From NCBI GenBank assembly GCA_038064735.1, contig JBBTSI010000010.1, positions 1 to 63,131 on the forward strand: a stretch of DNA of 63,131 nt. Direction: 5' to 3'. The position numbers and the translations under genes are program-made. Positions 26,059-28,530 of this stretch are shown in pieces. Source of the DNA: Patescibacteria group bacterium. GTDB taxonomy: Bacteria > Patescibacteriota > Minisyncoccia > Phycocordibacterales > WO2-35-19. The notes beneath the pieces were generated by a model. It saw nothing but the letters and a program-made list of their open reading frames with translations, ran no database searches and was not told the DNA's origin. Each line of letters begins with the position of its first letter. The first letter of the stretch is position 1.

Positions 26059-26063
26059 CAATG

Positions 26064-26137
26064 CGCGGACGATGGGATTTGAACCCACGACCTCTCCCGT
26101 GACAGGGGAGCGCTCTAACCAGCTGAGCTACGACCGC
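26064..26137 (-). tRNA. tRNA-Asp (anticodon GUC), no encoded CCA
   Basis: Manual fold: GCGGTCG-TA-GCTC-AGCTGGTTA-GAGC-G-CTCCC-CTGTCAC-GGGAG-AGGTC-GTGGG-TTCAAAT-CCCAT-CGTCCGC-G; one U-U mismatch in the acceptor stem. Confidence 0.82.
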
Positions 26138-26648: not shown

Positions 26649-26649
26649 G

Positions 26650-26723
26650 TGTCGGCGAGTGGAATCGAACCACTGACCTTGGGCTTATGAGTCCCACGCT
26701 CTAACCGACTGAGCTACGCCGAC
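26650..26723 (-). tRNA. tRNA with CAU anticodon (elongator Met or Ile2), canonical arms
   Basis: Manual fold: GTCGGCG-TA-GCTC-AGTCGGTTA-GAGC-G-TGGGA-CTCATAA-GCCCA-AGGTC-AGTGG-TTCGATT-CCACT-CGCCGAC-A. The G1-C72 pair argues against an initiator. Confidence 0.82.
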
Positions 26724-27455: not shown

Positions 27456-27523
27456 TAATATTAATAACTGTTTATAACTTGATACATTGCAATAATTTAA
27501 GTATTTAGTTACAATAACTTTAT

Positions 27524-27833
27524 TGCGGGGTAGAGTAATAGTAACTCGCGAGGCTCAATAATGGTGGGCCCATGGTTGAGTAATCAATCATTGCAAATTT
27601 GCCAAATTCGGAGAACTCCTCTCTGTTTCATCAACAGAAAGACAATTCCGAGCTAAATTCAGTTTAATTTTTTAAATTCAACTGATAAATGTGTAGAGAC
27701 TAGATGGCGAAATTCCAAGTTTTTAATTTGGAAGATGGTATAGTCCAGACCCCAAACTCCGCCAAGCGGAGATGTTGAAAAACATAGTGGTAAGCATAAC
27801 CTTGAAATTTTGGTGCAAATCCAAACTCCGCAA
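27524..27833 (+). tRNA. intron-containing tRNA(CAU): exons 27524-27555 and 27795-27833
   Basis: Joined exons give TGCGGGG-TA-GAGT-AATAGTA-ACTC-G-CGAGG-CTCATAA-CCTTG-AAAT-TTTGG-TGCAAAT-CCAAA-CTCCGCA-A (71 nt). The D loop lacks GG and the T loop is TGC instead of TTC. Confidence 0.7.
27556..27794 (+). ncRNA. group I self-splicing intron (Azoarcus-like, IC3-type core)
   Basis: CAAATTCGGAGAACTCC...GACAATTCCGAGCTAAA (P4/P5/P6), GTGTAGAGACTAGATGGCGAAA (J6/7-P7-P3), P8 TTCCAA/TTGGAA, AAGATGGTATAGTCC (P7 3' strand), P9 hairpins CTCCG-ccaa-CGGAG and ATGTT-gaaa-AACAT, terminal G at 27794. Confidence 0.85.
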
Positions 27834-27849
27834 CACGAATGTGACTTGT

Positions 27850-28530
27850 TTAAATAATAGAAAATTCTTTGAAAACCGCCTCAAAAAGAGAGATGATGCG
27901 GCGGGTTTCGCGTTGATTTAAAAGGAAATCATTACCCTCATGAGCAATGTTATTACGCGCTTTGTGAGCTTCCCAAGCGCTCTCGATAGTCGTAAAGTCG
28001 CTTGACTCCACCGCTTTCAGTTTATCACCTATAGTGTCTCCTGGCAGTTGAAGTTTGGCTAAAAGATCATCAAGCATGATGTCAGCTTCTATGATAGCGA
28101 GACGCCAATCGGAAGGATTTTCGGATTCGGAAAGTTTGAGTATTTTTTCCCACTTCCCTGTCAAAGGATTTTGCATAGATTTTTGAGGATAAATCCCGAC
28201 ATTAACTTTTTCAAAATTAGTATCGAGATAAACTTTGGCTTTTTCTTCGCGCACAACAGCATCACCTTTTTTGGTATATATAAAAGTACCCACAGCCGCA
28301 ACACCAGCTATGATAAATCCCAATGCCCGCCAAAACCAAGCACTGGATTCAAAAAATCCAACAATTCCGGAAAGTTTAAAACCATAAAAAGAAAGTTCAC
28401 CGGAAGTAAAATATTTCAATATGGCTGGTATGCCCATTCCCAAAAGAGCAGCGAGAAAAATCAGCACAATAATGCCTTCAATCGGGTCAAAATTCCAACC
28501 AGATGGTTTTTCTATTTTTTTATCTGCCAT
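27850..28530 (-). CDS. hypothetical membrane protein
   Basis: 226 aa; three TM helices then a soluble C-terminal domain. Confidence 0.5.
   Translation of the reverse strand: MADKKIEKPSGWNFDPIEGIIVLIFLAALLGMGIPAILKYFTSGELSFYGFKLSGIVGFFESSAWFWRALGFIIAGVAAVGTFIYTKKGDAVVREEKAKVYLDTNFEKVNVGIYPQKSMQNPLTGKWEKILKLSESENPSDWRLAIIEADIMLDDLLAKLQLPGDTIGDKLKAVESSDFTTIESAWEAHKARNNIAHEGNDFLLNQRETRRIISLFEAVFKEFSII

Follow-up and report, generated by a model that had tools for sequence, protein, structure and literature searches.

The whole stretch of DNA analysed here (the window; 63,131 nt) carries, at positions 27524-27833 of its plus strand, what is very probably an initiator tRNA-fMet gene of a Paceibacteria-like member of the Candidate Phyla Radiation (CPR)/Patescibacteria, split between U33 and C34 by a 239-nt group I intron that lacks an open reading frame (ORF) and belongs to type fMet.2Ug of the bacterial tRNA (IC3) lineage. 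The intron is an ordinary addition to the classical fMet.2Ug family, a type that is long known and widespread, and the locus raises no new question on group I introns.

Detection of the intron and its boundaries

A covariance-model search with Rfam placed a group I intron (RF00028) at 27546-27771 on the plus strand with 66.5 bits, where the gathering score is 50, and with E-values of 1.1e-14 for the full window and 8.1e-17 for the local stretch. The local alignment spans model positions 1-253, end to end, and this is the sole non-tRNA Rfam match across the whole window. The group I intron signal lies far beyond chance. When introns were permitted, ARAGORN reported a tRNA(CAU) gene at 27524-27834 with a 239-nt intron at 27556-27794, i(33,239), and excision of these positions in silico left a regular 72-nt cloverleaf with the anticodon loop CUCAUAA. 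An initial annotation, made from the sequence alone, had proposed that a group I intron interrupts the anticodon loop of a tRNA(CAU) gene and had named the Rfam group I model as a check. The model score, which clears the gathering threshold, and the ARAGORN prediction both agree with that proposal, and the boundaries, the 239-nt length and the post-splicing loop that it gave proved exact when compared with ARAGORN and with intronless orthologues. Its warning that automated finders may miss the gene was also borne out, as default ARAGORN and the Rfam tRNA model both report six other tRNAs in the window and both missed the split gene. Without intron-aware tRNA calling, the genome would seem to lack an initiator tRNA, which would skew completeness estimates for CPR bacteria. 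The parts of the gene are as follows.

27524-27555 (+): 5' exon, tRNA positions 1-33, with acceptor strand UGCGGGG, D arm GAGU-AAUAGUA-ACUC, anticodon stem strand CGAGG, C32 and U33 (ARAGORN)
27556-27794 (+): group I intron, 239 nt, ending in G27794 (RF00028, 66.5 bits; ARAGORN i(33,239))
27795-27833 (+): 3' exon, tRNA positions 34-73, with anticodon CAU, A37, A38, stem strand CCUUG, variable loop AAAU, T arm UUUGG-UGCAAAU-CCAAA, acceptor strand CUCCGCA and discriminator A

Intron and 3' exon share CA as their opening bases, which leaves the splice point ambiguous by sequence over three positions, and all three registers yield an identical product. Only U27555|C27556 ... G27794|C27795 gives a U at −1 together with a terminal G; the registers 1 or 2 nt to the 3' side lead to the same product, but they lack the U at −1 and the G at the intron end and were rejected. 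The terminal guanosine (omega G) is G27794, directly before the 3' splice site. The sequence GGUAAG|CAUAACC is common to all homologues, but it was built into the pattern used to find them; it also occurs in L003, which was found independently via gatA synteny (L numbers denote loci compared with the window).

Orthologues from related genomes support the same boundaries. Six loci (L001, L002, L004, L006, L009 and L058) have an intronless tRNA(CAU) gene in the syntenic position, which lies downstream of gatA and on the other strand, and these genes read ...GGCTCATAACC... unbroken over the proposed junction. The 5' exon of the window is almost the same as the corresponding part of intronless genes such as those of L001 and L004, and the whole L001 gene differs from the spliced product of the window at few positions only. 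L003 carries a 250-nt intron at the same site between exons that are 100% identical to those of the window, and its intron has diverged.

Structure of the intron

The core elements named in the initial annotation (P4-P6, J6/7-P7-P3 and the P7 3' strand) were located in the sequence where it had placed them, and its GNRA loops are present as GUAA at 27580-27583 (L2) and GAAA at 27777-27780 (L9b). The elements are listed below with the basis of each; MFE stands for minimum free energy.

27604-27657 (+): J3/4, P4, P5 and P6 segment, CAAAUUCGGAGAA...GACAAUUCCGAGCUAAA (read from the sequence)
27691-27712 (+): J6/7, P7 5' strand and P3 3' strand segment, GUGUAGAGACUAGAUGGCGAAA (read from the sequence)
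27732-27746 (+): J8/7 and P7 3' strand segment, AAGAUGGUAUAGUCC (read from the sequence)
27552-27570 (+): P1, GGCUCA 27552-27557 / UGGGCC 27565-27570, with wobble U27555·G27567 (read from the sequence)
27564-27570 (+): P10, guide GUGGGCC, able to pair with the first 3'-exon bases C27795, A27796 and U27797 (read from the sequence)
27572-27591 (+): P2 hairpin, AUGGUUGA/UCAAUCAU, with GUAA loop 27580-27583 (MFE fold; compensatory changes at 8/8 pairs)
27598-27604 (+): P3 5' strand UUUGCCA, partner 27705-27711 (MFE fold; 93.9% paired, double-sided changes at 5/7 pairs)
27705-27711 (+): P3 3' strand UGGCGAA (homologue alignment)
27608-27651 (+): P4, UCGGAG 27608-27613 / UUCCGA 27646-27651 (Rfam alignment; 100% paired in 40 sequences)
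27618-27627 / 27633-27642 (+): P5, extended, with two C·A mismatches common to L003 and L110 (register from homologue comparison)
27652-27692 (+): P6, GC 27652-27653 / GU 27691-27692 (Rfam alignment; 95.8% paired, helix 7)
27659-27664 / 27680-27685 (+): P6a hairpin (MFE fold; 46.5% paired in the family; replaced by a shorter hairpin in L003)
27696-27702 (+): P7 5' strand, G27696, bulged A27697 and GACUA 27698-27702 (100% paired in 40 sequences)
27741-27746 (+): P7 3' strand UAGUCC, forming the pseudoknot with P3 (homologue alignment)
27713-27733 (+): P8 hairpin, UUCCAAG/UUUGGAA (MFE fold; 75.6% paired, double-sided changes at 7/7 pairs)
27749-27791 (+): P9 of a three-way junction, ACCCC 27749-27753 / GUGGU 27787-27791 (97% paired; AAG follows the junction)
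27757-27761 / 27767-27771 (+): P9a, CUCCG/CGGAG (MFE fold; 85.7% paired, compensatory changes at 5/5 pairs)
27772-27776 / 27781-27785 (+): P9b, AUGUU/AACAU, with GAAA loop 27777-27780 (MFE fold; 98% paired, compensatory changes at 4/5 pairs)

When the intron is folded by itself, the MFE structure contains P2, P3, P4, P5, P6a, P8, P9a and P9b (z = −2.8). By homology with the Azoarcus structure, we take G27698-C27745, beside the bulged A27697, to be the guanosine-binding pair. A bulged register of P5 (UCU/AGA with two bulged A) was tried and rejected, because L003, L110 and L177 agree better with a helix that stays in register and accepts two C·A mismatches. No plus-strand ORF of 50 aa or more lies within 27556-27794, and the intron thus has no endonuclease ORF of its own; the sole overlapping ORF (27723-27884, minus strand, 53 aa, TTG start) leaves the intron and crosses the 3' exon.

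Homologues were collected with the junction-spanning pattern AGTCCAGACC-N30-60-GGTAAGCATAACC, which recovered at least 120 genome loci that share this intron/exon junction; they come from Cyanobacteria, Nitrospirae, Bacteroidota, Planctomycetes and many Patescibacteria (at least 10 among 80 of the matches listed). Introns of 193-1478 nt at CU|CAUAA could be delimited in 87 of these loci; L129 was left out of the homologue set, and the 5' boundary of L120 was set by hand. The exons at nearly all recovered loci are textbook initiators (CGCGGGGTGGAGCAGCCTGGTAGCTCGTCGGGCT|CATAACCCGAAGG...). A MAFFT alignment of 40 non-redundant short intron copies with the window and L003 is sound through the core and contains 72 invariant columns.

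The P1-P9 model was then scored on the 40 homologues, where 86.7% of cells hold a standard pair compared with 31-43% when the 3' partners are slid, a measure that is inflated relative to the slid controls because the window sequence was also the one on which the structure had been drawn. Double-sided changes were found in 423 cells, against 161±13 in shuffles, and 0 of 500 shuffles reached 423. Compensatory changes occur at all P2 and P8 pairs, at 5 of the 7 P3 pairs and at most P9a and P9b pairs. P4, P7 and the centre of P1 including its U·G pair are non-varying in the alignment, with the P1 pairs G-C, C-G, U·G and C-G invariant in 40/40 homologues; the last P7 pair covaries as GC/AU/UA.

None of the 72 invariant columns is altered in the window, which also matches 99 of the 111 columns conserved at 80% or more. 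Eleven of the twelve differing columns are common to CPR relatives (L003, L110, L177, L119), and the twelfth, A27772, changes a G·U pair to A-U. Relative to the window, the diverged intron of L003 replaces A-U by C-G in P2, CUG/CAG by CCA/UGG in P5 and AUGUU/AACAU by GCAUU/AAUGC in P9b; its P6a is shorter, and 33 nt are inserted in its P9a. Nothing in the pattern of conservation suggests that the intron is decaying.

Initiator identity of the host tRNA

Judged from its exons, the host is an initiator-type tRNA-fMet, not a tRNA-Ile2. The acceptor stem reads U1-A72, G2-C71, C3-G70, G4-C69, G5-C68, G6·U67 and G7-C66, and the exons also have A11:U24, discriminator A73, G30-C40 and G31-C39. The pairs G2-C71/C3-G70/G4-C69, A11:U24, A73 and G30-C40/G31-C39 are marks of bacterial initiators. 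In global alignments, the spliced tRNA is identical at 55 of 72 positions to E. coli tRNA-fMet and at 57 to the canonical initiator exons of L083, compared with 43 for tRNA-Ile2 and 43 for the other CAU tRNA of the window; elongator tRNA-Met gave no meaningful alignment. That other CAU tRNA (26649-26723, minus strand) has G1-C72 and C11:G24 and is therefore an elongator-type gene. Homology suggests that the spliced tRNA would be used as the initiator in vivo.

Several points weigh against the reading of a functional fMet.2Ug intron in an initiator gene. Within the intron, C·A mismatches occur twice in P5, and U27654/U27690 does not form as a third pair of P6; furthermore, MAFFT is not structure-aware in the variable hairpins, where P6a is 46.5% and P5 63% paired. 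Within the exons, a weak U1-A72 pair stands in place of the canonical initiator C1xA72 mismatch, two of the three anticodon-stem G-C pairs are present with A29-U41 replacing the third, the D-loop has no G18G19 and the T-loop carries G55.

The departures from the canonical acceptor end and anticodon stem speak for a reading in which the intron is real but its host is a lysidine-modified tRNA-Ile2(CAU) or an elongator tRNA-Met, which would make it type Ile2.2Ug or Met.2Ug. The Ile2.2Ug and Met.2Ug seeds of Williams 2020 share the same P1 (GGCUCA...UGGGCC/U), and L121 and L159 in the pattern search have the same junction in non-initiator exons. However, the GCGGGG/C(U/C)CCGC acceptor stem, A11:U24, A73 and G30G31/C39C40 agree with initiators, and identity to E. 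coli is 55/72 with fMet against 43 with Ile2. In addition, the gene at 26649-26723 is elongator-type and is paired in every syntenic relative with a GCGGGG-type gene. We consider a tRNA-Ile2 or elongator host very unlikely.

We regard it as very improbable indeed that the intron is a decayed, non-splicing remnant in a tRNA pseudogene with the functional initiator elsewhere in the genome: the P5 mismatches, the two-pair P6, the non-canonical D- and T-loops and the fact that the remaining genome lies outside the window could be read in this way, but the conserved columns described above are kept with deviations common to the clade, divergence from L003 and L110 proceeds via helix-preserving compensatory changes while the exons stay identical, and the D/T-loop combination recurs in 15 CPR initiator genes, some of them intronless, and is therefore a lineage trait, not decay. 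CPR genomes usually have a single copy per tRNA, which also counts against a second initiator gene.

Proposed splicing pathway

For the favoured reading, a functional fMet.2Ug intron in an initiator gene, homology and conservation point to self-splicing by the following route. Transcription of the gene would give a pre-tRNA of about 310 nt, in which the intron would fold into a P1-P9 core with a P3/P7 pseudoknot. The guide GUGGGCC (27564-27570) would pair with the 5'-exon end GGCU, setting U27555·G27567 at the cleavage site, and a free guanosine bound in the P7 pocket (G27698-C27745) would attack after U27555. The CAU of the 3' exon may then displace the CA of the intron on the same guide (P10), so that the ligated GGCU-CAU would lie on one continuous guide. 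The terminal G27794 would move into the P7 pocket, and attack of the 5'-exon 3'-OH after G27794 would ligate the exons and form the loop CUCAUAA. The mature tRNA would gain its non-encoded CCA and serve in translation initiation.

Relation to known tRNA introns

The four classical types of intron-split bacterial tRNA, Leu.3Ug, Arg.5Ug, fMet.2Ug and Ile2.5Ug, are all IC3, and 17 further types including Ile2.2Ug and Met.2Ug have been added (Williams 2020, bioRxiv 10.1101/2020.01.27.920355). For metagenomic assemblies of unnamed phyla, the same study put the number of intron-split tRNA genes at 0.49 per genome, and it traced the first description of the fMet.2Ug type to cyanobacteria. Group I introns in tRNAs were also found to hamper tRNA detection in circularised genomes (Lui et al. 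2021, PMC8172020). Our own placement in IC3 is by way of the typing of classical tRNA introns by Williams 2020, which suggests this subgroup for the window intron. The initial annotation had called a case in a CPR-like genome notable; this view does not hold, because Williams 2020, Lui et al. 2021 and the at least 10 Patescibacteria metagenome-assembled genomes (MAGs) with the same intron type in the pattern search show that a CPR case is not new.

Six published seed introns were compared with the window intron. Pairwise global identity ranged over 56-63% of query positions and separated the types poorly, and typing was therefore based on insertion site, exons and P9 architecture. The seed Tpc1.fMet.2Ug, with 63% identical positions, agrees with the window intron in its insertion point and P1, and likewise in the ...UGGUAAG end and the three-way junction at P9.

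The cyanobacterial fMet introns (Synechocystis PCC 6803, Scytonema and Dermocarpa; fMet.2Ug, IC3) interrupt the same initiator host at the same site, CU|CAUAA. They are alike in P1 (GCUCA.../...UGGGC with the U·G wobble), in the 3' end (...UGGUAAG|CAUAACC) and in the P9/P9a/P9b(GAAA) junction, and the Scytonema, Nostoc and Trichodesmium copies (L084, L087, L091) align with the window intron over its full length. The differences are that the window intron resides in a CPR host, that the intron and its exons are AT-rich, and that it has no P1 extension hairpin, whereas most cyanobacterial copies have a 40-60 nt insertion in the P1 loop. Its P5 is extended with C·A mismatches, and its P6 has two pairs (GC/GU) in contrast to GCC/GGU. 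The 655-nt Synechocystis intron encodes the homing endonuclease I-Ssp6803I (PMC1995217), whereas the window intron has no homing-endonuclease ORF.

The initial annotation had drawn a close parallel with the tRNA-Ile(CAU) intron of Azoarcus sp. BH72 (Ile2.5Ug, 205 nt, PMC13168695), which stands at the level of the subgroup and fails at the level of the type. Both introns are of the IC3 lineage and sit in the anticodon loop of a CAU tRNA, with nearly identical J3/4-P4, J6/7-P7 (GUAGAGACUAGA) and P7 3' strand (AUAGUCC). In both, P2 is capped by a GNRA loop and the P9 region has a GAAA loop. However, the Azoarcus intron follows the anticodon (CAU|, loop position 5, 36/37) and the window intron follows U33 (position 2), where the 5' exon ends in ...GGCU; because the insertion points differ, P1 and the guide sequence differ as well. 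The Azoarcus host is a tRNA-Ile2 and the window host is initiator-type. The P9 region of Azoarcus is a single hairpin plus P9.0, whereas that of the window is a three-way junction ending in UGGUAAG, as in fMet and Leu introns. Among the six published seeds, the Azoarcus intron shows the lowest similarity to the window intron (alignment score 115 vs 151-162).

The tRNA introns of candidate phyla (Asp.4Ug, Ile2.2Ug and Met.2Ug; Williams 2020) resemble the window intron in architecture and AT-rich style but differ in host tRNA and/or site. The P6 form of the seed Wba81.Asp.4Ug, GC-UAAA...UAAAU-GU-GUAGAGACUA, matches that of the window.

An unusual elbow in CPR initiator tRNAs

In this lineage the D-loop of the initiator tRNA, AAUAGUA (D arm 27533-27547), is short and lacks G18G19, and the T-loop is UGCAAAU (T arm 27808-27824), with G55 for U55. 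In a survey of 98 initiator-like genes, 82 combined a D-loop GG with a UUC T-loop, one combined GG with AUC, and 15 combined the absence of GG with UGC. None of the 98 paired a GG-less D-loop with a UUC T-loop, and none paired GG with UGC. The 15 genes with a GG-less D-loop and a UGC T-loop are all CPR-type (the window, L001, L002, L004, L005, L006, L013, L015, L029, L058, L110, L119, L167, L177 and L190). This pattern looks like covariation of a tertiary pair, in which G18·U55 would be replaced by A18·G55 with G19-C56 kept. We found no description of this D-loop/T-loop pairing of CPR initiators in the literature.

If the A18·G55 swap is true, bacterial initiator tRNA would have a structural variant that has so far gone undescribed, with possible consequences in CPR bacteria for the enzymes that modify the T-loop (TruB, TrmA) and for contacts with the ribosome or IF2. 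It is conceivable, though we give the idea only a small chance, that one probably single initiator gene unites obligatory ribozyme-dependent maturation with a re-wired tRNA elbow (GG-less D-loop and G55). If so, the intron could act as a folding or quality checkpoint for the elbow-variant tRNA.

Genomic context, distribution and mobility

In the window, the neighbours of the tRNA gene include the genes for GatA, GatC and LigA. The nearest relatives of GatA belong to CPR/Patescibacteria MAGs, the best being Candidatus Zambryskibacteria RIFOXYC1_FULL_39_10 with 77% identity, which supports the description of the genome as CPR-like in the initial annotation. The gene order fMet(CAU), Met/Ile2(CAU), Asp(GUC) by gatCA-ligA (27524-27833, 26649-26723 and 26063-26137 in the window) is kept in many Paceibacteria-like MAGs (L001, L004, L006, L007, L009, L010, L058).

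Of the closely related loci, L003 (GatA 71%) and L110 have the intron, as does the window; L001 and L002 (GatA 77%) and L058 (75%) lack it. This patchy distribution, together with the spread of the intron over many phyla, fits a mobile ribozyme that has been gained and lost repeatedly. Long copies in other phyla (~650 nt) encode on the sense strand a 150-aa PD-(D/E)XK protein of the I-Ssp6803I family (PF11645, E = 1.5e-50).

A different ORF was observed in three tRNA-fMet genes with introns of 705-738 nt (L105, L125, L167). It is conserved, antisense, ~155 aa long (…GLVLWATEGDKTQLSLSNGN…KAVIHCHD…YPYGI(L/I)RI…) and unrelated to the PF11645 protein. L105 and L167 are Patescibacteria-type, and L125 is labelled Gammaproteobacteria. 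The L167 ORF, the one scanned of the three, had no Pfam match. The antisense ORF may encode an uncharacterised homing endonuclease.

Flanking signals were weak. A promoter-like TTGCAA-17-TACAAT ends 9 nt upstream of the tRNA start as a possible pre-tRNA promoter and is noted for position only; two such sites were found against 2.5 expected from shuffles, which is not above chance, and the promoter and terminator scan of the region gave no signal exceeding chance.

27487-27515 (+): promoter-like TTGCAA-17-TACAAT, weak

The 3' CCA is not encoded at 27833-27837 (discriminator A, then CACG), whereas the intronless L001 and L058 orthologues encode it (…GCAACCACG). An 11-nt direct repeat, CCAAACUCCGC, occurs at 27752-27762 (intron P9/P9a) and at 27821-27831 (T-stem/acceptor end, 3' exon). 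We rejected it as a duplication footprint: the ACCACAAAC part (CCACAAAC-like) is a family-conserved P9/J9 motif, and the remainder is probably chance.

A second interrupted tRNA was observed next to the initiator locus of a related Parcubacteria MAG, where the neighbouring tRNA-Asp(GUC) gene (L005, 9075-9383, plus strand) has a 229-nt insert (ARAGORN i(37,229)). With 42.5 bits against the group I model (E = 1.5e-9), this insert falls short of the gathering score of 50; its type is probably Asp.4Ug. The window orthologue of this tRNA-Asp gene (26063-26137, minus strand) is uninterrupted.

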